From a virus (Duplodnaviria; Caudoviricetes), in the IMG/VR virus record IMGVR_UViG_3300013713_000001, positions 32,001 through 96,000 of that record: 64,000 nucleotides of DNA. One strand, written 5' to 3'. Position 1 is the stretch's first letter; each line of letters starts with the position of its first letter. The notes beneath the pieces are model-generated. The model searched no databases and was not told where the DNA came from. It saw only the letters and a program-made list of their open reading frames with translations. Shown here in pieces: positions 2,860-20,042 of the stretch. A program made the translations under genes and the position numbers.

Positions 2860-3441
2860 ATGGCATTTCCAAATGACGAGTTATTCCTGGAGCGTTTCAT
2901 CGCGTACAACATACGGCGGTATAGCTCCGACCCCGAGTTTGTAGCAAAGCTGCAGACATTAACCCTTACCAACACCACCTTTTTCAACTTCCGTAAAGTC
3001 CAGCTGGCCACTGGCGGCGTAGCCCACTATGTTGATGTCAACTCTCCCGGTATCCTGGAAGGTATTGACCAACAGTACCTCCCGGCGGACTACACAAAGC
3101 ACGGGCCCTCTGAGATAGAGGACGAAGTGCCCTTCCTCAAGGAAGACCTGGAAGTCAAAACCGTTCAAGGGGTTTACTTCCTTGGCACGAGTAAAGAGGA
3201 CTCAGTTGGCGCAGTGGTCATGCTTAATGGTCATGTCAACGCTGCTGAGTTGAAAGCCCTGGTCAAAGAGAAGTGCCTCTTTGTATTGCAGGATAACGAG
3301 ATCGTCGTCAGCAATGACATGACGTATGTCACCATTGATTCACGCACCATCAACGGTGTTTTGAAAGTGGTTGAATCTCTGTACGACGGGGTCCCTCGTT
3401 ATAACGGGGTCTTCCGACACGACGGGACCATCACCTACTAA
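2860..3441 (+). CDS. Putative virion/tail-fibre attachment protein; paralog of 31152..31760
   Basis: First gene of tail operon; C-terminal RYNGVFRHDGTITY; N-terminus aligns with 31152 protein. Confidence 0.55.
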   Translation: MAFPNDELFLERFIAYNIRRYSSDPEFVAKLQTLTLTNTTFFNFRKVQLATGGVAHYVDVNSPGILEGIDQQYLPADYTKHGPSEIEDEVPFLKEDLEVKTVQGVYFLGTSKEDSVGAVVMLNGHVNAAELKALVKEKCLFVLQDNEIVVSNDMTYVTIDSRTINGVLKVVESLYDGVPRYNGVFRHDGTITY

Positions 3442-3456
3442 GGAAAGGTACCAGTA

Positions 3457-6400
3457 ATGGCTATCACAGACGATGCAGTAAAGCCTGGTGATTTGCCGGC
3501 TATTAAAGAACAACCGATTTGGGAAGAACACCTACCTGCGCTTATTTCTGGCGTAAAGGTACAAGGTAAAAGTGATGGTTCCGGGGCGTCTAACTTCCAG
3601 GCCCGTGTTCTGGACAAACGTACCCGCTGGTTGAAAGAAGTAGTCGAAGGCTTGGCGTTGGGCGGTATTATCCTCTTGGGGTATCTGCCTGATGAAGACG
3701 CGCTGAACGAAGTAGAAACAGACAAACTCCAGGTCGGTACTGCTTACTTTGTTGACTTTGCCCTGCGGGTCTGGAACGGACAACAGTGGGCAACCTCTGG
3801 GTCCCTTCGTGGCGAACGCGGTCTTAACCTGCTGGGTGTATGGCCTGAGAAAGTTTCCCTTCCTGAAGTGGAAGAGAACGAGATCGGTGACGCCTACATC
3901 TGGAACCATGACTTCTGGGTGTTGGTTCCAAACCCGCTCCGCTGGGAACCGATGGGTATTCGAGGTCCGGAGGGTAAGTCCGCCTATGAGGTCTGGGAGA
4001 GCCAACCTGCCAACGCGGGTAAGAGTGAAACGCAGTACCTGAAGTCACTCATCGCCAAAGACAACTACCAGATCGCCGTTGAGGAAGGGTTCAAGGGTAC
4101 CCGTAGTGAGTGGGTCGATTCCCTGCGCGCCAAGAACAACTATGAACTGTGGTTGCAGGCAGGTAATAAAGGCAGTCTTGAAGATTACCTGGTTACTTTG
4201 AAGTCCACGGTTCCTGGTCCCAAGGGCGACAACATCAAAGGTGACCCAGGAGATAATGGCAAAGACGGACGTAACCTCTACATCAAGGGAACCGTCCCGA
4301 CCCGTGGGTGGCTCGAGGGGTTACCGACAAAGGAAGACCAGGACGCCTACATCACGGCTGACGATAACCACCTGTGGATGTACTTGGTTCCCGGTGGCTT
4401 TACCGACCTTGGTCCCTTCAGGGGTAGTGATGGTAAAGATGGTAAGAATGGCCGGAACATCGTTCTGCTGGGTGCAGTGGAAGCTATTGCTAACTTGCCA
4501 AAGGGCCCTGTCGACCAGGACTGCTATGCGGTAACAGCGGTCAATGCGGTCTACATGTTTATCTCCAGCCAAGGCTGGACGAACCTGGGGACCTTCAAAG
4601 GCCGGGACGGTACCAATGGGACCAACGGCACCAATGGCACTAACGGGAAGAATGGGACTAACGGTCTTAACATCGTGCTTACTGGCGCGGTTGATAAGTT
4701 CAGTGAGCTTCCGGTCACCCCAGCTGAGCAAGACGTCTACGCCGTTCGTGAAGAGAACCGTCTGTATGGACGTATCAATTCCGTCTGGGTTCACCTTGGG
4801 ACCTTTAAGGGAGAAAAGGGTGATACCGGGGATAAGGGCGAAGACGGAAAGAGTATCAAAGGGGATAAAGGTGAGGATGGTAAGGACGGTCGCAACATCA
4901 TCGTCAAGAACGTCTTGCCAAGTGCTAGTGATCTCCCCGCCACGGCTAACCAGGAGCAGGATTGCTACGCGGTCAATGACACGAACGAAGTGTTCATGTG
5001 GATCGATGCAAAATGGAAAAGTCTCGGCAAGTTTAAAGGACGTGACGGTACTAACGGGGTCAACATTGTTGTAAAGGGTTCGGTAGCCTCATTCGCTGCC
5101 CTTCCTTCTGGTCCTGCGGAGCAGGACGTTTATTCTGTTCAGGATGAAAACGCGCTTTACGCCTTTGTTTCGGGAGCATGGTTAAACCTCGGTACCTTTA
5201 AAGGTAAAGACGGTAGAAACGGCACTGATGGTAAGAACGGTAAAGATGGTGCCAATGGCAAGTCCACTGACATCATCAAAGTCCTTACTGAAGAAGACCA
5301 GACCCCTCCCCCGCTTGATAGCACTACTCTTGGAAAGTCCTACTTGGACTTGAACAACATCGTCTGGATCAACTTGGACCTGAAATGGCAAAAGGTTGGT
5401 CCGTTTAACGGTGAGAAAGGTGACATTGGTCCGGCGGGTCCACCGATGAAGATCCGTGGTACTGTGCCTACTCTAGCGGACCTGCCTGCATTGGAGGACA
5501 CTGAGGAAGGCGACCTCTGGTACACCGCGGACACCAAACTGGCTTACGGTGTTGTTGACGGTAACTGGACTGATGCGATTGACATGATTGGCCCAGAAGG
5601 TAAGCAAGGCCTGGAGGGTCTACCAGGTGCGTTGATGCCGATCCTTGGCCTCTACGATACCTTGCCTGCGTTGATCGCCGATCGCCCCACGGGTTCTAAA
5701 GGGGATGCTTACCTTGTCGTCACCGGTCAAGACAGCCGTAACCTGATCGTCTGGAACACGAACACCAATAGCTGGCAGGACACCGGTCCGGCAGGCTTGC
5801 CAGGTCCACGCGGTCCAGCTGGTAAGGACTCTGTGGTTCCAGGTCCACGTGGTGAGAAGGGAAGTCAATGGCTGATCCTTCCTGCTGACCAGGACGAACC
5901 TTCCGACACGTTTAACGGGCGCACAGGTGACTGGGCGGTTACGAAGAACATGCGGGTCTGGTACAAGACTGCAGAGGGTTGGATCTTCTGGAACTGGATC
6001 GTGGCAGGTGACGTTAACTCACCTTTGAAAGGAGAAGGGATCGTTGCGCGTTATGGGGCTGAATGGGTTCCCCTACCCGTTGACGAGGTAAAGGAGGCTG
6101 TTGCCGGTAAGGTCTACGGTCGTCGTCTGAAAACAGGTGACGATGAAGTGACAGAATGGGTAGAGATTGAATTCCCTGATGTCATGACCAAAGACGGGAA
6201 GCCGTACGCCCGTGTTTGGTTGACCGATGGTGATGCACCCGTCTGGCAGGAGATTCAGTTCCCTAAGGGTATTGAAGATCTGAAGACCAAAGACGGCAAA
6301 CAACATGCACGGGTTTGGGAAGCTGACGGAACAGCACCCGTCTGGAAAGAGATCGTTTTCCCTAAAGGGATTACTGACCTCCTTACCAAGGACGACAACA

Positions 6401-6933
6401 AGCAGTTTGTTCGTGTCTTCAAGAACGGATCAGACACCCCAATCTGGCAAGAGCTGAAACTGCCTGAAGCGGGCATTGCGGACGTTAAGAACCCGGAAGC
6501 CGGTGCGGTATACCTGCGGGATCCAGGAAACAACACGTGGGTTAAATACCTCAAGTCCGCCAGCGATGGTCGTCAGTACCTTCAAAAGGACGGGAGTTGG
6601 ATCCGGTTTGACCGTTACGACCTTGCCATCAAGACGGTTACTGCGAGCTACCAGATTGACCCTGAGGTCGATCAGATCGTTGCAGTGACGAACACTACCA
6701 GCACGGCAAAGGTGATCTCCATCAAGGATTTCCTCTCTGACCGCGCGACAACAGTGATCGTCAGAATCAAGGGGACTACCGGGGCGATCTCGTATGGCGG
6801 AACAAACATTCGCTGGGATACCCGTTTGAATGGTGGTAGTCCGCCTGATTTGAGCACCTACCGAACCTCGCTTGTGTTCTTCTGGGACGGTGAAGTGTGG
6901 ACCGGTAACGTGAGTTCGACCACTAACCAATAA
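3457..6933 (+). CDS. Tail fibre protein 1 (collagen-like G-x-x linkers with repeated ~50-aa modules)
   Basis: N-terminal GASNFQARVLDKRTRWLK fibre anchor motif; repeated GxNIxxxGxV...LP...QDxYAV...WxxLGxFKG modules; followed by chaperone-like gene. Confidence 0.8.
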   Translation: MAITDDAVKPGDLPAIKEQPIWEEHLPALISGVKVQGKSDGSGASNFQARVLDKRTRWLKEVVEGLALGGIILLGYLPDEDALNEVETDKLQVGTAYFVDFALRVWNGQQWATSGSLRGERGLNLLGVWPEKVSLPEVEENEIGDAYIWNHDFWVLVPNPLRWEPMGIRGPEGKSAYEVWESQPANAGKSETQYLKSLIAKDNYQIAVEEGFKGTRSEWVDSLRAKNNYELWLQAGNKGSLEDYLVTLKSTVPGPKGDNIKGDPGDNGKDGRNLYIKGTVPTRGWLEGLPTKEDQDAYITADDNHLWMYLVPGGFTDLGPFRGSDGKDGKNGRNIVLLGAVEAIANLPKGPVDQDCYAVTAVNAVYMFISSQGWTNLGTFKGRDGTNGTNGTNGTNGKNGTNGLNIVLTGAVDKFSELPVTPAEQDVYAVREENRLYGRINSVWVHLGTFKGEKGDTGDKGEDGKSIKGDKGEDGKDGRNIIVKNVLPSASDLPATANQEQDCYAVNDTNEVFMWIDAKWKSLGKFKGRDGTNGVNIVVKGSVASFAALPSGPAEQDVYSVQDENALYAFVSGAWLNLGTFKGKDGRNGTDGKNGKDGANGKSTDIIKVLTEEDQTPPPLDSTTLGKSYLDLNNIVWINLDLKWQKVGPFNGEKGDIGPAGPPMKIRGTVPTLADLPALEDTEEGDLWYTADTKLAYGVVDGNWTDAIDMIGPEGKQGLEGLPGALMPILGLYDTLPALIADRPTGSKGDAYLVVTGQDSRNLIVWNTNTNSWQDTGPAGLPGPRGPAGKDSVVPGPRGEKGSQWLILPADQDEPSDTFNGRTGDWAVTKNMRVWYKTAEGWIFWNWIVAGDVNSPLKGEGIVARYGAEWVPLPVDEVKEAVAGKVYGRRLKTGDDEVTEWVEIEFPDVMTKDGKPYARVWLTDGDAPVWQEIQFPKGIEDLKTKDGKQHARVWEADGTAPVWKEIVFPKGITDLLTKDDNKQFVRVFKNGSDTPIWQELKLPEAGIADVKNPEAGAVYLRDPGNNTWVKYLKSASDGRQYLQKDGSWIRFDRYDLAIKTVTASYQIDPEVDQIVAVTNTTSTAKVISIKDFLSDRATTVIVRIKGTTGAISYGGTNIRWDTRLNGGSPPDLSTYRTSLVFFWDGEVWTGNVSSTTNQ

Positions 6934-8174: not shown

Positions 8175-9110
8175 GTGATTGAATTATTGTCGTGCGGGAA
8201 CAGTAAGCCCCGTGTCGAATACCCTGATTCTGGTCCGGGACCCATTACTCTCTCCAAGGGTGATGAGACGCTTGGATTATTTGGTATCGTAAGTTATTCA
8301 GATTTCTTTACTGGGACCGAATTAATTAAAGCCACCGGGTCTCCGGCTAAAACCAGTCCTACAGATACTACGGACTGGGTAAAGATGATGGTAGACAAAC
8401 AAGTTCTGTTTATTCCTAGACGGCCGCTAAGCTCGGGCGGTAACTGGAATGAGTTTTACGAGAGAGGGCTCGTTTACGGGGATGGGACTGACGGTAAGTA
8501 CCCCTCAGTCACCCCCGTAAAACAGCAATCGCTGGTTGTAAAGGCTGGAAGTATTTTTAGGGTAAGGCTTTTCGGAAAGGGTGATCCGGATCCAATAACG
8601 GTGCCCGCTGGCGCTTCTAACACCCAGTTGTTAAAGGATTTTGAGCTAGGTCGTTTCTTGGCGGCCACTCACTACATGCCAGGTAACAACCATGAGCAAC
8701 TAAGCAACTCATGGAGGCTCTACCCCATGGACAGTGGGGTCACTTGGATATCTAGAGCGATATGGATGATGGAGACCTATGGCAGTAATGTTAGTCAAGC
8801 ACTTTCTTACTACCTGCGGTCATTCCCTGCTCCAGAGCCGATGTACCTTAATAAAAGCATATCTTCCACTAACAGCTATCTTTGGTGGCCCGTGCTTGAG
8901 GTAATGCCGGTCGATACATTGTTTGCAATTGATACGCCTTCCAATCTCGTCATAGACGAAACAGTTCCCGCTCCGATAGCGGTTACCTCGACTGATTATG
9001 AGGAGGCTACCGAAGCTGACATGCTGAAACCCATCTCTCTTCAGGGAGTCCGTTACGACACGACAGACCCTAAAGCTGTCGCGATCACTTCGCTTGATTA
9101 TGAAGCGTAA
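8175..9110 (+). CDS. Virion structural protein, DSGPGP/GxFG paralog family
   Basis: YPDSGPGP..L..GD...G.FG and terminal WWPVLE shared with neighbours. Confidence 0.65.
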   Translation: MIELLSCGNSKPRVEYPDSGPGPITLSKGDETLGLFGIVSYSDFFTGTELIKATGSPAKTSPTDTTDWVKMMVDKQVLFIPRRPLSSGGNWNEFYERGLVYGDGTDGKYPSVTPVKQQSLVVKAGSIFRVRLFGKGDPDPITVPAGASNTQLLKDFELGRFLAATHYMPGNNHEQLSNSWRLYPMDSGVTWISRAIWMMETYGSNVSQALSYYLRSFPAPEPMYLNKSISSTNSYLWWPVLEVMPVDTLFAIDTPSNLVIDETVPAPIAVTSTDYEEATEADMLKPISLQGVRYDTTDPKAVAITSLDYEA

Positions 9111-9121
9111 GGATAAAGAAC

Positions 9122-10102
9122 ATGCGAGTAAGACTTCGTTGGAAAGATCAAAACTCTAAACCTCACGACACCCTTATTTACCGTAGTGACACGCGGCCTA
9201 CTGCTGACCCTACAGGGACCCCACTGGTAAAACTGAGCAATGGGGAAACCGTTTGGGAGGATGTGACTGTAGTGAAGGGCGCAACCTATTGGTACACCTT
9301 TGTTGTCGCTAACAAAACCAATCGGGTCGTAAGTACGCCTGTCCAGGTTATCGCTCTTCCTAGAACTGGACATGGCCCTCAGGAAATAGTCTGGGGTGAT
9401 CAAGACTGGGGAATCTACGGCTACGTGGATGAAAACCTGTTTATCACTACCGCAAAACTGTTCTCACTGTTTGAGCCCGGTGGAAGCTTTTTTACAACAT
9501 CGGGTACTGTCGCCAATTACTGGAACAAGTTTGTGCGTAACGGCAAGACTCTATTTGTCCCGAGAAAGGCCGTTTCTTTCAATACGAATTGGAATGATCT
9601 CTATTTGAAAGGCTTGGTCTTTGGTGTTAATGGACCCGGCCCTCAAACAGGAGGCAACCCAGAAACCAACCAGCTGCGTACAGTTATCATTGATGGCGAT
9701 GAGTATATCGTCCGGCTCCCTACCGGATTTGACGATCGCGATAACCCAACGCGTGTTATCCCGGGTGAACTGACCCCTAGTAACGGAGGCCCTTTCCGTA
9801 AATACAGTGAGTTGGCCGATTTGTTCTGGTCGACTATCCCTGCATTTCCGCCTGACCGTAACCGCGCCATGAATGGACTATTAATGTGGTATTACCCGTT
9901 GATAGGATCATCAGGAGGGTCGATTATCCCCCAGGAGATTAATCCTAATAACAATTCCATCATGGCCCCTCTAGGGTTTACCGCTAACACGGATGTTCAG
10001 CCATTCTTCCGTTCAACACAGTACGCAAACGCGTCTCGTTACGCTGCCTGTGGGTGGTGGCCAATTCTTGAATTGATCGAAACGTTGGAGGTCGTCGTAT
10101 GA
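9122..10102 (+). CDS. Virion structural protein, N-terminal FN3/Ig-like domain plus family domain
   Basis: RVRLRW..IYRS..WED..YWY N-terminus; TGHGPQ..GD..G.YG; WWPILE. Confidence 0.65.
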   Translation: MRVRLRWKDQNSKPHDTLIYRSDTRPTADPTGTPLVKLSNGETVWEDVTVVKGATYWYTFVVANKTNRVVSTPVQVIALPRTGHGPQEIVWGDQDWGIYGYVDENLFITTAKLFSLFEPGGSFFTTSGTVANYWNKFVRNGKTLFVPRKAVSFNTNWNDLYLKGLVFGVNGPGPQTGGNPETNQLRTVIIDGDEYIVRLPTGFDDRDNPTRVIPGELTPSNGGPFRKYSELADLFWSTIPAFPPDRNRAMNGLLMWYYPLIGSSGGSIIPQEINPNNNSIMAPLGFTANTDVQPFFRSTQYANASRYAACGWWPILELIETLEVVV

Positions 10103-11004
10103 GTGTTCGAGTTAAGTGGTTGAACCGGAACGCTAGCTACGATTCCATTACTGTTTACCGAGATACAAAGAAAATCAGTCCGGATTCTCTGCCTGCGCCC
10201 ATTGCAACGTTAACCGGGGGCGAGAAGAGTTACCTTGATACGACAGCTCCAACGAAAACCTTGCTGTATTACCTCATTGCGTTAAAGAAAGGCTCGTCAA
10301 CGATATACTCTAAGCCCAAGCCTACCGTCAACGTAGGGTACACGGGACCTGGTCCGCAAGCTATTCAACTAGGCGATTGGCGGTTCGGTTACTTCGGGAC
10401 GTTAACTGAACTAGAATTTTTTAGTGCAGCCGAGGTAACCGCCCAGACAGGCATTACGAACCCCACAACCTCTACAACCACCTGGTACAAGTTTGCTTTC
10501 AGGGGAAAGGTCCTTTACATCCCTAACGGGCACCTGAGCACTGCTGTAGGGTGGAATCTTCTCTACTCCAAAGGGATGGTGTTTGGGATTGATGGCCCGG
10601 GGCCGACTGGTCACCAGAACACACCCGTGACGCAGATGCAAACGGTGACCAAAGGCGATGATCAGTTCATTGTTCGTTTACCGCGTTCCAACAACACCCC
10701 GGGCTACGTAGCGGGAACTACAGACTTTGCGTCAGGAGAGGGGATTGCCGAATATGCGCTTCTTATCTCCTTAGGAAATAAACCCACTGGGGAGGAAAAC
10801 CCTATCCTCGGCAACGCGGGGTTCTCTGGAGTTCCTGCGGTGGCCCCACTTGCTGAGTTTCAAGCTGGAGCACCAGCTTCAACCGGATGTAACCACGTTT
10901 ACGCGAATGGCGGAACAAATGTCAACATCACGCAGCTAACTAACTGTAACCGAAATACGTCTACCTACTGTTGGAGACCTGTCCTGGAATGGGTCATGCG
11001 CTAG
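10099..11004 (+). CDS. Virion structural protein, paralog of 9122..10102
   Basis: Same architecture: VRVKW..VYR..YLD..YY; TGPGPQ..GD..GYFG; WRPVLE. Confidence 0.65.
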   Translation: MSVRVKWLNRNASYDSITVYRDTKKISPDSLPAPIATLTGGEKSYLDTTAPTKTLLYYLIALKKGSSTIYSKPKPTVNVGYTGPGPQAIQLGDWRFGYFGTLTELEFFSAAEVTAQTGITNPTTSTTTWYKFAFRGKVLYIPNGHLSTAVGWNLLYSKGMVFGIDGPGPTGHQNTPVTQMQTVTKGDDQFIVRLPRSNNTPGYVAGTTDFASGEGIAEYALLISLGNKPTGEENPILGNAGFSGVPAVAPLAEFQAGAPASTGCNHVYANGGTNVNITQLTNCNRNTSTYCWRPVLEWVMR

Positions 11005-11028: not shown

Positions 11029-13980
11029 ATGGCTATTACTGATGATTCTGTTAAACCAGGTGACCTTCCTGGTATTGTTGAAGAAGCCGAATGGGAGGAA
11101 CACCTCCCCGCTCTGGTGACCGGCGTTAAGGTTCAGGGTAAACGCGATGGCACAGGGGCTTCCAACTTCCAGGCTCGGGTATTCGATAAGCGTACCCGTT
11201 GGCTGAAAGAGTTGTTCGAAAACTTCCAGCGTATCAACGGCACTGGGGTTATCCTCAAAGGGGTGCTCTACACCGAACAGGCGCTGGCCGCGATTCCAAC
11301 CGATGATCTCCTGATCGGGACCGCTTACTTCCTCAATTTCGAACTGAGGATGTGGAACGGTAAGGAGTGGGCGTCCTCGGGTTCCTTGCGTGGCGACCGG
11401 GGTATCAACATCCTTGGTGTCTGGCCGGATGAGGTAGAGCTCCCCGACTATAAACAACGTCAGATGGGCGATGCCTACATCTACAAGCACGACATCTGGG
11501 TACTTGTTCCTGACTTCGATTACTATGACACCAACCCTGACCCCAATGCCCCGCCGGTCTGGGAAGAACTGGGGATTCGCGGTCCAGCAGGGGCATCGAC
11601 CTACGAAACTTGGAAAGAACAGCCGGGTAATAAGGATAAGGGCATTGATGCATTCCTTAGTGCCCAGAAAGGGGAGAAGGGTGACGATGGTTTCGAGACC
11701 TGGAAAAAGATCCCAGGTAACGCAAAGAAAACCATTGAGGATTGGGCCGAAGCAATGCGCGGCAAGCAGGGGATCCAGGGTGACCCTCGTGCCCCGTTCA
11801 CTGTAGCCGGGTCCAAGGAAACGATTACCCAGTTACCCTTCCCAGGTGATGAAAAGAAGGCCTACTACGTTGGCATTGATCTCTACGTTTGGGTAGAAGG
11901 CATTCAGGACTACTTCGTGGTACCCGGCCTTAAAGGGATGAGCGCTTACGAAGACTGGTTGGCATCCGACCCTGAGCATGCTGGCTTGAGTGTTGATGTG
12001 TTCCTTAACTCACTTATCTCCCAGGTCCCCGGACCACGAGGCTTTAAGGGCGAAGATGGTAAGGACGGTCGCAACCTGCGAGTGAAGGGAACTGTTAGCA
12101 ATGCTGGTAATCTCCGGGAAATCCTGAAGCCGGAGGACCAAGACGGTTACGTGGCATCCGATACCGGTCGCCTGTGGATGTGGCTACCGAACGACCCTGA
12201 GCCTGGTTGGGTAGACCTCGGGCCTTACCGCGGGGTTGATGGTCTGGACTCCTACCAGGTCTGGAAGAAGAACGTCAATCCTGAAGGGACCATGGGTGAA
12301 TACCTGGCGTCCATCAAGGGTAAAGACGGGATCAACATGAAAGTTAACGGGATCGTTGATACCCTCAACGACCTTCCGATTAACGCTCAAGAGCAGATGT
12401 TGTACGCTGTTATTGAGGAACACTCGTTCTACATGTACCTGGACGGCGCCTGGGCCAACATTGGCAACTACGGGATGGATGGCAAAGACGGTATCGACGG
12501 GAAATCCCTCGACATCATCAAGGTCTTTACCGAAGCTGACCAAGTCATTCCTCCTGCCGATGCCAGTACCAAGGGTAAGGCCTATGTCTCCCTTAACCCT
12601 CGCGATGTCTACGTCAACGTCAGCGGGTACAACTGGATCAACGCAGGTCCCTTCATGCCTGAGGGCAAGCAGGGGATCCAGGGCGTGGCGTTCCGTCCGA
12701 AGGGTACGGTCACCTCGTTGCAAGAACTTCCAAGGATTGGCGGGAAGGATGGGGCTCAAGAAGGTGACAGCTACTCGGTCATCTCCGAAGCCAAGAAGAT
12801 GTGGACAGTTATCGAGGGGCGGTGGGAAGGTCCTATCGATATCGTTGGTCCCCAAGGTGATCAAGGCATCCAGGGTATCCCGGGTGCACTGATGCCGATC
12901 AAGGGCGTCTACAAGAGCATGCCCCTGTTGCGTGCCGCTAAGCCGACTGGGTCACTCGGTGATGCTTACATGATCATCGACCTTGACGCCAAGCCTGACC
13001 CTATCCGTAACCTGGCCATCTGGTCTGAAGAAGGCAATGACTGGGTCGACACGGGACCTGCAGGGGTTAAGGGTGAACGGGGTCCAGCGGGTCCAGCCTC
13101 TACGATCCCAGGTCCTATCGGTAGCCAGTGGCTGATCCTCGACACCCAGGATGCCCCTTCCAACGTCTTCAACGGCCGTGAGGGGGATTGGGCAGTTAAC
13201 CGGTTGATGCGAGTGTACTACCGTACTGCTACGAGCTGGGCATACTGGGGAACACTGGTCGCAGGTGACGTTAACTCGCCGCTGCAGTCTGAAGGTAAGG
13301 TGGTTCGTTACGGTGACGTCTGGGTCCCTCTTCCTGTTGACGAAGTAAAGAACGCAGAGCAAGGTAAATTCTACGGTCGGACGATAGTAGGGCAAACTGA
13401 AAGTGGGGGTAACGTTCTCGATTGGTCGGAAATCAAGACCATCGAGGACCTCAAGACCAAGGATGATGTCAAACAGTTCGTTCGGGTCTTCAAGAAGGAC
13501 TCGTCGGTTCCCGTCTGGGCTGAACTGGATGGTATGCAGGACCCCTTGAACCCAAAGGACGGTGCCTACTACCTGCGTTTCAGTAAGAACAAATCGTGGG
13601 TCGAGTTTAAAGTAGCGCCATCTGACGACAAGTTGTACATGTCGAAAAATGGTGACTGGGTAGCCTTTGACCGCTACGACGTTCTCATGAAGAAGATCAC
13701 TACCACGTACCAGATCGACCCGTTGGTCGAGCAGTTCGTAAAACTCGACAACACTGCTGCAACAGCTAAGACCATCAGTCTCAAAGCGGGTCCTAAAGAC
13801 CGCGGAATGGTTGTTGTACTGGTCGTTGTTGGTATCACGGGTGGTCTTCTCTACGACAGCACAAACATCAAGTGGGACCTTAACACCATCCCCTCGTTGA
13901 GCGGAACTCGCAACGTCATCTCCTTTGTGTGGGACGGCGAGTTCTGGCTCGGTGCGAAAGGGGCAAACCCAACTACTTAA
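11029..13980 (+). CDS. Tail fibre protein 2, paralog of fibre 1
   Basis: Near-identical N-terminus (MAITDD.VKPGDLP), collagen linkers, shared VAGDVNSPL and C-terminal F.WDGE.W. Confidence 0.8.
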   Translation: MAITDDSVKPGDLPGIVEEAEWEEHLPALVTGVKVQGKRDGTGASNFQARVFDKRTRWLKELFENFQRINGTGVILKGVLYTEQALAAIPTDDLLIGTAYFLNFELRMWNGKEWASSGSLRGDRGINILGVWPDEVELPDYKQRQMGDAYIYKHDIWVLVPDFDYYDTNPDPNAPPVWEELGIRGPAGASTYETWKEQPGNKDKGIDAFLSAQKGEKGDDGFETWKKIPGNAKKTIEDWAEAMRGKQGIQGDPRAPFTVAGSKETITQLPFPGDEKKAYYVGIDLYVWVEGIQDYFVVPGLKGMSAYEDWLASDPEHAGLSVDVFLNSLISQVPGPRGFKGEDGKDGRNLRVKGTVSNAGNLREILKPEDQDGYVASDTGRLWMWLPNDPEPGWVDLGPYRGVDGLDSYQVWKKNVNPEGTMGEYLASIKGKDGINMKVNGIVDTLNDLPINAQEQMLYAVIEEHSFYMYLDGAWANIGNYGMDGKDGIDGKSLDIIKVFTEADQVIPPADASTKGKAYVSLNPRDVYVNVSGYNWINAGPFMPEGKQGIQGVAFRPKGTVTSLQELPRIGGKDGAQEGDSYSVISEAKKMWTVIEGRWEGPIDIVGPQGDQGIQGIPGALMPIKGVYKSMPLLRAAKPTGSLGDAYMIIDLDAKPDPIRNLAIWSEEGNDWVDTGPAGVKGERGPAGPASTIPGPIGSQWLILDTQDAPSNVFNGREGDWAVNRLMRVYYRTATSWAYWGTLVAGDVNSPLQSEGKVVRYGDVWVPLPVDEVKNAEQGKFYGRTIVGQTESGGNVLDWSEIKTIEDLKTKDDVKQFVRVFKKDSSVPVWAELDGMQDPLNPKDGAYYLRFSKNKSWVEFKVAPSDDKLYMSKNGDWVAFDRYDVLMKKITTTYQIDPLVEQFVKLDNTAATAKTISLKAGPKDRGMVVVLVVVGITGGLLYDSTNIKWDLNTIPSLSGTRNVISFVWDGEFWLGAKGANPTT

Positions 13981-18893: not shown

Positions 18894-19268
18894 ATGGATA
18901 AACCTATCGACCCGTTTGATTTCAACAAACCCCCCTTCATGAGCTTGATGCTACCCCTTACGGAGCCAGGGGTAAACGGACCATTGCAAGTGGTTCACGA
19001 GCGTTTGAATATCCTGAAAAACATGATTCACGGGGGAGTAGGTCCTTCTCTCCATTTTATTGGGACACTGCCTAATCGAAATGCCTTAGACGGTATCGAT
19101 ACCACCTCCCTTCCAGAGAACAGTGCTTACTTTGTAGGTCCTGCTATCGCGGTATGGAACAAAGAGGAATGGGTTGTGTCCGACTCCCTTCAGGGACCCC
19201 CCGGGGATGGCGCTAGTGATGGTGATGATTCTGACTTGCTTCTTATCTATCAAACAGCCAAAGGGTAA
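18894..19268 (+). CDS. Short fibre-anchor-like protein (cassette gene A)
   Basis: GTLP..AL..I.T..L...AYFV..I.VWN..EW..S.SL.G matches first module of both fibres; ends DLLLIYQTAKG. Confidence 0.7.
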   Translation: MDKPIDPFDFNKPPFMSLMLPLTEPGVNGPLQVVHERLNILKNMIHGGVGPSLHFIGTLPNRNALDGIDTTSLPENSAYFVGPAIAVWNKEEWVVSDSLQGPPGDGASDGDDSDLLLIYQTAKG

Positions 19269-19274
19269 CACATC

Positions 19275-19862
19275 ATGTCTTCTGCCAATCTGATCCTGCT
19301 TGCTGGTGCCATCGGTGCCGACGTCAAACTGCTGCGCCAGGTCCAAGGTGATCTGACCAAGCTCCCCACCACCGCCAAAGACAACCTGGTCAATGCGCTC
19401 ATCGAGCTGCACGCCCTGGCCAGCGCTCCGAAAGGCGCCCAGATCGATGACACCGCTACCAACGGCGACGTCGATGTCACCTGGTCCGCCGACAAGATCT
19501 TCGACTCCATCGCTCAGGCCATCGTCACCGCCAAAAGCGAAACCAAGAACGAACTGCTCGACGGCGCCGGCGCGGCCTACGACACCTTCAAGGAACTCCA
19601 GGACCTCCTGGTTGGCCAAGAAGATGCCGTCTCCGCTCTGACCACCGCTGTCGGCAACCGCGTTCGCTTCGACCAGGCGCAAGTCCTGACCGACGAGCAG
19701 AAAGGCATCGCGCGTTCGAACATCGGTGCGGCCAGCACTCAGGACGTTACCAACGTCACTGCTCAGATCACCACCGTGAGCGACAACCTCGCTGCCCTGG
19801 TCGACTCCCTGGGTGACGTCGACGCCGACCTGGTCGCTGCCTACAACGCTGCCAAGGCGTAA
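19275..19862 (+). CDS. Coiled-coil fibre subunit, probably high copy (cassette gene B)
   Basis: Fibre motifs GAGAAYDTFKEL and QVLTDEQKGIARSNIGA; extreme C/G-ending codon bias; starts LAGAIGADVK, ends DLVAAYNAAKA. Confidence 0.75.
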   Translation: MSSANLILLAGAIGADVKLLRQVQGDLTKLPTTAKDNLVNALIELHALASAPKGAQIDDTATNGDVDVTWSADKIFDSIAQAIVTAKSETKNELLDGAGAAYDTFKELQDLLVGQEDAVSALTTAVGNRVRFDQAQVLTDEQKGIARSNIGAASTQDVTNVTAQITTVSDNLAALVDSLGDVDADLVAAYNAAKA

Positions 19863-19865
19863 TAG

Positions 19866-20042
19866 GTGAGCTCGAGCGCCAGAGCAGTTGCACTGGCTGA
19901 GGCCGTAGGGGTGGATATCAAAGACCTCACTGCGCAACTGCAGGCGAGCAACCAGCAAATCACCGATCTTCAAGACGCCCTGGTCCAGGCAAACGCCAAG
20001 ATCAAGGAACTGACGGAACGATTGGACGCAATGACCAACTAG
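19866..20042 (+). CDS. 58-aa coiled-coil protein (cassette gene C), absent from ORF track
   Basis: GTG start directly after TAA TAG of gene B; LAEAVGVDIKDL resembles gene B N-terminus; heptad-rich. Confidence 0.65.
   Translation: MSSSARAVALAEAVGVDIKDLTAQLQASNQQITDLQDALVQANAKIKELTERLDAMTN

Follow-up and report, generated by a model that had tools for sequence, protein, structure and literature searches.

Several phages build their tail fibres from more than one protein and carry receptor-binding tips that can be swapped, as is already known. One such system is the T4 long tail fibre (gp34-gp35-gp36-gp37), in which separately encoded segments are joined end to end, the proximal segment is anchored in the baseplate and the distal segment binds the receptor. 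The analysis presented here concerns three adjacent genes, called A, B and C, in a 64,000-nucleotide stretch of phage DNA (the window), which comprises bases 32,001–96,000 of one contig of 229,109 bp (IMG/VR record IMGVR_UViG_3300013713_000001). They most likely encode a short accessory fibre, which like that of T4 would be an end-to-end assembly of separately encoded segments. The distal proteins of related loci would bind receptors as the T4 distal segment does, and one of them (locus L019) contains a Gp34_trimer domain. A, B and C themselves have no similarity to gp34, gp36 or gp37 in Pfam, PHROG or NCBIfam, and they differ from the T4 system in having no monomeric hinge protein, in the tiny size of their segments (124, 195 and 58 residues), and in that one short pair of terminal motifs, portable across many types of phage, would serve for both joints. 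We found no published account of fibre segments from separate genes being connected by a short, portable plug and socket.

The receptor-binding proteins of T7-like phages, of SP6 and K1-5, and of Klebsiella phages with anchor-branch systems have a short conserved N-terminal docking part and swapped C-terminal domains, and are attached via an adaptor. The tips of the loci described here likewise combine a conserved N-terminal docking part with exchangeable receptor-binding domains. In contrast to those systems, the docking partner is apparently the last 12 residues of the preceding segment, rather than a T4 gp10-like or gatekeeper domain, and there is an optional spacer, B, which holds both plug and socket.

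Long filaments made of small subunits are also relevant, because the original prediction for this locus was a polymer, virion-A-(B)n-C, in which C caps a chain of B subunits and the ratio of B to C sets its length. In phage Goslar, the DUF7941 proteins gp22 and gp23 form filaments seen by electron microscopy, with hundreds to thousands of copies per virion, and have been proposed to make head-to-tail baseplate filaments; some members are fused to binding domains (bioRxiv 10.64898/2026.04.21.720040). A mechanism like that of the original prediction has thus already been proposed for another member of this virus family. B would resemble DUF7941 in being a small baseplate-associated subunit of a chimallivirus. 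It differs in being predicted to be all-helical and in occurring mainly outside the chimalliviruses, to which DUF7941 is specific; the two are set apart by description, without a direct search using a DUF7941 model. Podophages GP4, VP1 and A1002 have chain-like fibres of many subunits of 140–170 residues, in which dimers are strung on a separate 'rope' protein by β-sheet augmentation (PMC13730344). The chain proteins concerned (GP4 gp80, VP1 gp11, A1002 gp40-41) are thus dimers on a rope and not self-joining trimers, and B has no sequence match to any PDB chain at E ≤ 1 apart from one chance match; A has none.

T4 fibritin (wac) and the whiskers of phage PMBT3 are, like the proposed A-B-C fibre, thin, mostly coiled-coil fibres without a receptor domain. 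No fibritin or foldon homology was detected by Pfam in A, B or C, and unlike fibritin the anchor of A resembles the N-termini of tail fibres and not a neck protein. The phi29-type head fibre (PF11133) gave no Pfam match at E ≤ 0.1, and was a language-model neighbour at 0.87, which is below the level at which such neighbours are counted. The head filament of phiCbK was considered as a product of a B cassette, but phiCbK itself gave no match and the candidate in the literature is gp76, so that it is no more than a lead. The capsid fibres of 7-7-1 and the fibres of JBD30 showed no link to A-B-C.

The three genes are characterized by two short motifs (Table 1). The C-motif occupies the last ~12 residues of a protein and has the consensus D-[LFP]-[LV]-x-x-Y-x-x-A-K, while the N-motif at the start of a protein has the consensus L-A-x-A-[IV]-G-x-D-[IV]-K. 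A ends with D-L-L-L-I-Y-Q-T-A-K-G and has only the C-motif. B has both, in a start helix L-A-G-A-I-G-A-D-V-K and an end D-L-V-A-A-Y-N-A-A-K-A. C starts with an N-motif helix like that of B and has no C-motif, its matrix score being −17. Position matrices built from 40 or more related loci were run on the 2,574 open reading frames (ORFs) of the 229-kb genome, and neither motif was found outside A, B and C: the best unrelated ORF scored 12.9 for the N-motif, compared to 47 in this locus, and 6.7 for the C-motif, compared to 26–34. The distribution of motifs on which the original prediction was built is therefore present in the sequence and confined to these three genes.

Table 1. Positions in the window of genes A, B and C, their motifs, and features of the neighbouring fibre module.
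Feature	Position	Strand	Evidence or context
Gene A, 124 aa, putative anchor/adaptor: fibre-like N-terminal part, short Gly-Pro stub, C-motif	18894..19268	+	BLASTP, phrog_3904
Gene B, 195 aa, putative shaft module with both motifs	19275..19862	+	phrog_4757, AlphaFold2
Gene C, 58 aa, GTG start, N-motif and ~40-residue coiled coil	19866..20042	+	
C-motif of A, last 12 residues	19230..19265	+	matrix score 26.1
N-motif of B, residues 2–20	19278..19334	+	matrix score 47.5; predicted helix 3–24
C-motif of B, residues 183–195	19821..19859	+	matrix score 34.5; predicted terminal helix 186–194
N-motif of C	19869–19925	+	matrix score 47.0
Long tail fibre 1	3457–6933	+	fibre module
Long tail fibre 2	11029–13980	+	fibre module
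DUF4376 companion genes of both long fibres		+	fibre module
1346-aa protein with Kelch and discoidin domains		+	fibre module
Paralogues of the phrog_1062/3589 virion protein family	2860–3441; 8175–11004; 14728–~15900		fibre module
Perfect 15-bp inverted repeat, 6-nt loop	20075–20110	between convergent gene blocks	repeat search, 100% complementary

Residues 28–104 of A align with residues 46–122 of long fibre 1 (35% identity, E = 1e-13, BLASTP), and A also matches fibre 2 (31% identity, E = 1e-7) and the tail fibre family phrog_3904 (E = 8e-5). By these alignments, A is a paralogue of the two long tail fibres, copied from their proximal part (the first ~120 residues), which agrees with the fibre anchor that had been proposed for it; the first 27 residues of A are unlike those of either fibre. 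A 'collagen stub' had also been described. Where fibres 1 and 2 run on into collagen-like repeats, A has a Gly-Pro element that consists of G-P-P-G-D-G only, so that the description was generous.

Neither A nor B has a match in Pfam or NCBIfam. B belongs to phrog_4757 (E = 1.1e-36, 127.8 bits; residues 8–194 on profile positions 17–184 of 359), a family labelled 'unknown function' in PHROG and without an entry in Pfam, NCBIfam or PDB. An exhaustive HMMER search found 1,334 representative clusters of this family at E ≤ 1e-3, most of them 160–200 residues long. AlphaFold2, using an alignment of 149 sequences, predicts B to be an extended all-helical rod (predicted local distance difference test score, pLDDT, 89.5) with helices at residues 3–24, 38–50, 72–94, 105–127, 140–150, 155–179 and 186–194. 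Both motifs are thus predicted to be helical, the N-motif lying within the first helix and the C-motif within the short terminal one. The hydrophobic residues of the N-motif have a heptad-like spacing, with flanking Ala and Gly, and we infer that this face is a surface on which further helices could pack. Foldseek gave no match for B at E ≤ 0.001, and a wide VIA-align search of the PDB gave generic long coiled coils only (Z ≤ 4.1).

Gene C begins with GTG directly behind TAA TAG. It has a weak match, under the Pfam cut-off, to the trimeric matrilin coiled coil, and no receptor-binding domain was recognized in it. On a related contig (L003), A and B are 53% and 62% identical to the proteins here, and C is retained with 47% identity over 47 residues and also a GTG start, which confirms C as a real gene, as had been suggested. 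The C-type genes of L003 and L004 encode 62–74 residues and both start with GTG, as does that of L012. The closest relatives of the locus, on contigs of jumbo size (L003, L004, L011), also have an A-type adaptor with a fibre-like N-terminus.

The three-gene pattern is widespread. Using B as the query, 49 IMG/VR loci were gathered, and a further search with the last 50 residues of adaptors gave 54, many contigs being in both sets. The order C-motif only, both motifs, N-motif only, on one strand, was found in all of the ~45 complete loci from the B side and in 43 of the 48 complete loci from the adaptor side. Over both searches about 90 phage loci have the triad, and each contains exactly one B. 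The named phages PMBT3, CcrBL9, SM1 and Cygsa01 have it too. The search for the same synteny and motif distribution in other genomes, which had been put forward as a check, was therefore positive. Homologues of B occur mainly in Gordonia, Pseudomonas siphophage, Caulobacter, Ralstonia and rhizobial phages. Where a protein has both motifs, its length lies between 163 and 799 residues, the difference being made up by inserted repeats and stretches of coiled coil (P0123, P0125, P0142, P0147, P0165), and the shaft is therefore lengthened genetically.

The third gene varies much more, from 58 to ~790 residues, and only its first ~20 residues are common to B and to the other tips. Beyond the N-motif, the tips contain domains as different as a tail Collar domain, a BNR propeller, Gp34_trimer and a Spherulin4-like hydrolase. 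In most loci the third position is occupied by a receptor-binding tip and not by a cap. Receptor-binding proteins that dock through a shared element typically show it in this form, as a conserved N-terminal peptide followed by swapped C-terminal domains, and an N-motif retained on otherwise unrelated tips fits a role in docking. Apart from it, the one conserved element that is suitably placed is the C-motif, at the distal end of the preceding protein.

Some loci have a different arrangement. A 162,860-bp IMG/VR contig (L112, positions 3617–6232; the same genes are found in L113) has the order [C][N][C][N], that is, two consecutive two-part fibres. In the first pair an adaptor stands directly before an N-motif tip. 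In the second pair, a C-motif protein containing the C-terminal two thirds of B is followed by an N-motif tip. This gene order indicates that the joint can work without a complete B. There are also natural fusions: in P0131 and P0170 an N-like region follows within ~8 residues of the C-motif in one chain, and in P0121 the C-motif is followed by a Gly-rich linker and a tip.

The two joints differ in detail. In adaptors, positions 6, 8 and 9 of the C-motif are hydrophobic (typically Tyr, Ile and Leu), while in B they are polar or small (Asp/Ala, Thr/Asn and Ala/Thr). Position 6 of the N-motif is Ile or Val in 25 of 31 B proteins; in tips it is mostly Thr, and hydrophobic in 9 of 29. With more loci, and in counts that ignore kinship, A-to-B joints are hydrophobic on both sides in 36 of 48 cases and B-to-tip joints non-hydrophobic on both sides in 33 of 49. 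Both of the adaptor-to-tip joints are hydrophobic on both sides. Taken together, the comparative evidence gives good support for modular head-to-tail docking.

The C-motif also has a role at the level of RNA. The final C-motif codons of A, AAA GGG (19260–19265), form the Shine-Dalgarno sequence of B, at −14 to −9, and AAGG at 19854–19857 in the C-motif of B forms that of C, at −12/−11 of the GTG. In nearly all loci the terminal Lys-Gly or Lys-Ala codons read AAGG and lie 11–12 nt upstream of the next start, and the gap to the next gene is 2–4 nt in most. This arrangement suggests translational coupling, with roughly equal synthesis of the proteins. Part of the conservation of the C-motif is thus explained by the use of its terminal codons as a ribosome-binding site, but its upstream part (Asp, the hydrophobic pair and Tyr) is kept at the protein level, beyond what a ribosome-binding site needs.

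In the present locus A, B and C share one reading frame, with a gap of 6 nt between A and B and 3 nt between B and C. Read-through of stop codons, or a single gene that has become broken, was considered and rejected, as A and B are mostly in different frames at other loci. Recombination linkers, or a joint recently duplicated at the DNA level, were rejected as well, there being no DNA repeat between the two junctions. The 3-nt gap that is common between B and tip can be attributed to Shine-Dalgarno spacing.

B stands out in its composition, with a GC content of 62% against ~50% around it and a GC content at third codon positions (GC3) of 0.78. The codon adaptation index (CAI) was calculated relative to the capsid, sheath, tube, chimallin and internal head protein genes, and 206 ORFs were ranked. 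B is seventh, at 0.72, while A (0.21) is 201st and C (0.43) about 53rd; the long fibres rank 52 and 85, and the neighbours of B score 0.20–0.43. The codon usage of B is therefore that of the capsid, sheath and chimallin genes and unlike that of all other genes of the fibre module. In L003 the GC3 values of A, B and C are 0.42, 0.69 and 0.62, in the same direction as the CAI here. The strong codon bias noted in the original prediction is real, but its interpretation as a sign of high copy number is less secure: across loci, GC3 is higher in B than in the adaptor (+0.09, p = 8e-5), but is the same in B as in tips of at least 100 residues (+0.01, not significant). The outlier status of B could reflect high expression or, just as well, the passage of the cassette between high-GC phages. 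Relatives of B at ~65% identity are found both on contigs of 30–100 kb and on contigs of ~230–240 kb, and its closest homologues are on contigs of 227–243 kb.

The closest homologue of B in a named phage is that of PMBT3 (47.5% identity). This phage has up to three collar whiskers, 154 ± 13 nm long and with cylindrical distal ends, for which no gene has been given (PMC8421299). Its cassette follows the lysis genes and encodes proteins of 102, 98 (C-motif), 164 (B), 495 (N-motif tip) and 217 residues (L001 5352–8588; L117 30348–33584). The fibre-like genes of PMBT3 without assignment are this cassette and a gene for a 1018-residue protein with a GH18 domain, and it is a conjecture that the cassette, as one candidate beside the GH18 protein, makes the whiskers. 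At one copy each, 98, 164 and 495 residues are too few for 154 nm.

We consider the most likely explanation, with a probability of roughly 0.55, to be that A, B and C form a short accessory fibre containing one trimer of each, connected by a portable joint between C-terminal and N-terminal helices and anchored at the same place as the long fibres. They would be the proximal, middle and distal segments of a single thin trimeric fibre on the baseplate, assembled non-covalently with 1:1:1 stoichiometry. A would hold the fibre in the baseplate with a part copied from the long tail fibres, while B would be a helical rod of ~20–25 nm (as estimated from its 195 mostly helical residues) and C a short terminal coiled coil. 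At each joint, the C-terminal ~12 residues of one protein would pack on the amphipathic, Ala/Gly-rich first helix of the next one downstream. The joint would serve many unrelated phages as a portable connector, by which a resident adaptor is fitted with exchangeable tips, B being a spacer that can be dispensed with. There are several points that weigh against this explanation. The contact between C-motif and N-motif is deduced from the comparison of sequences, and the joint-specific differences in residues are drawn from related sequences with kinship ignored. A covariation between position 11 of the N-motif (basic) and position 8 of the C-motif (acidic) looks strong in the raw counts (13/5/3/127), but draws on ~3 of 6 independent contrasts and does not reach significance. 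B and the tips have near-identical N-motifs, with no evident rule for their order. The CAI of B, compared to those of A and C, is not explained by equal stoichiometry unless B came from high-GC phages, and the lack of a recognizable binding domain in gene C leaves the fibre with no assignable function.

As originally predicted, B might instead polymerize through its own C- and N-motifs. B carries both motifs, its N-motif is almost the same as in C and other tips, and in this phage and its jumbo relatives the C-motif of A resembles that of B. The capsid-like codon usage of B would fit a protein needed in many copies, the GTG starts of C-type genes would fit a cap, and a polymer would make up the length that the PMBT3 cassette lacks for a 154-nm whisker; the filaments proposed for DUF7941, although from an unrelated family, are similar in concept. 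If B did join to itself, with A as primer and C or a tip as terminator, this would be a widespread route to long thin appendages from a protein of ~170 residues, and could explain both the PMBT3 whiskers and the codon usage of B. We nevertheless regard such a polymer, and a length set by the B:C ratio, as unlikely. Each of the ~90 loci has a single B gene, and B-type proteins are extended by internal repeats, up to 799 residues, so that length is encoded in the gene. The joint-specific signatures suggest that the C-motif of B is matched to tips and not to B, coupled translation would make B and tip in similar amounts, and the agreement in GC3 between B and tips means that codon bias does not mark an excess of B. 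Most tips are receptor-binding domains, which need a defined geometry. As for PMBT3, the whiskers have a narrow length distribution (standard deviation 9%), unlike that expected from stochastic capping, and the GH18 protein is an alternative candidate for them.

It is about equally improbable that the motifs are not joints between subunits at all, but elements for folding or trimerization, the end of the C-motif being partly a ribosome-binding site, and that the proteins are attached to the virion separately or are themselves assembly factors. The double use of the terminal codons as AAGG in nearly all loci fits this suggestion, as does the varied context of B-like domains, which occur among proteins annotated as head fibre or capsid-related and next to capsid genes. 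However, the strict order of C-only, both and N-only, and the strictly terminal position of the motifs, would be difficult to account for if there were no joint. Nothing else conserved in the tips and the short C-like proteins could serve for their attachment, the upstream part of the C-motif is conserved beyond its use in translation, and the two motifs stay adjacent in fused forms. Less probable still is an alternative or branched assembly, in which, the N-motifs being equivalent, A docks either B or C, and B docks C, so that virions would bear both short A-C fibres and longer A-B-C ones. In this phage B and C agree at 10 of 19 positions of the N-motif, across the family these motifs are near-identical, and L112/L113 provide natural adaptor-to-tip pairs without B. 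But in the L112 tip that directly follows an adaptor, position 6 is hydrophobic as in B, an indication that joints are matched rather than promiscuous.

Should the joint prove real, many 'hypothetical' phage genes could be annotated by a simple rule as adaptor, shaft or tip, and the joint would point to host-range cassettes. It would also be a natural connector for placing foreign binding domains on the fibres of phages in laboratory phage-host systems, and it provides candidate genes for appendages that have no assigned gene, such as the whiskers of PMBT3.

The mounting of the module on other virions may differ. In non-jumbo phages a gene of ~100 residues is regularly found upstream of a small C-motif adaptor. 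Examples are phiM7 gp77, SM1_068, Cygsa01_00055 and the 102-residue ORF of PMBT3, and the stretches concerned are L062 3369–3913, L063 3222–3822, L064 3429–3937 and L001 5352–5953. Their product may fix the fibre to the virion in these phages. B-like domains are labelled 'head fiber protein' in Gordonia phages (for example OlgasClover gene 8 and Pherobrine gene 5), phiM7 gp75 is labelled 'capsid-related protein', and CcrBL9 gp128–130 adjoin capsid genes. The site at which the module is attached thus seems to vary from one kind of virion to another.

The genome encodes chimallin, a phiKZ-type major head protein that is 57% identical to its counterpart in Pseudomonas phage EL, and a tail sheath. 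Judged by these genes, the phage is a nucleus-forming jumbo phage of the EL/RisingSun type, an EL-like chimallivirus. A plus-strand fibre module (Table 1) ends with genes A, B and C, which a gap of 125 nt separates from its preceding part. The phrog_1062/3589 family, with several paralogues in this module, is a multi-copy family found in chimalliviruses only, in 119 phage records and at as many as 9 places in one genome, and may be the DUF7941 family. Its members here have a low CAI of 0.20–0.35. Downstream of C there is a hairpin, followed by convergent minus-strand genes. The arms of the repeat are CTACCC/GGGTAG, and no T run follows it, which is why a simple terminator scan did not list it. 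The hairpin is likely to mark the end of the A-B-C transcription unit.

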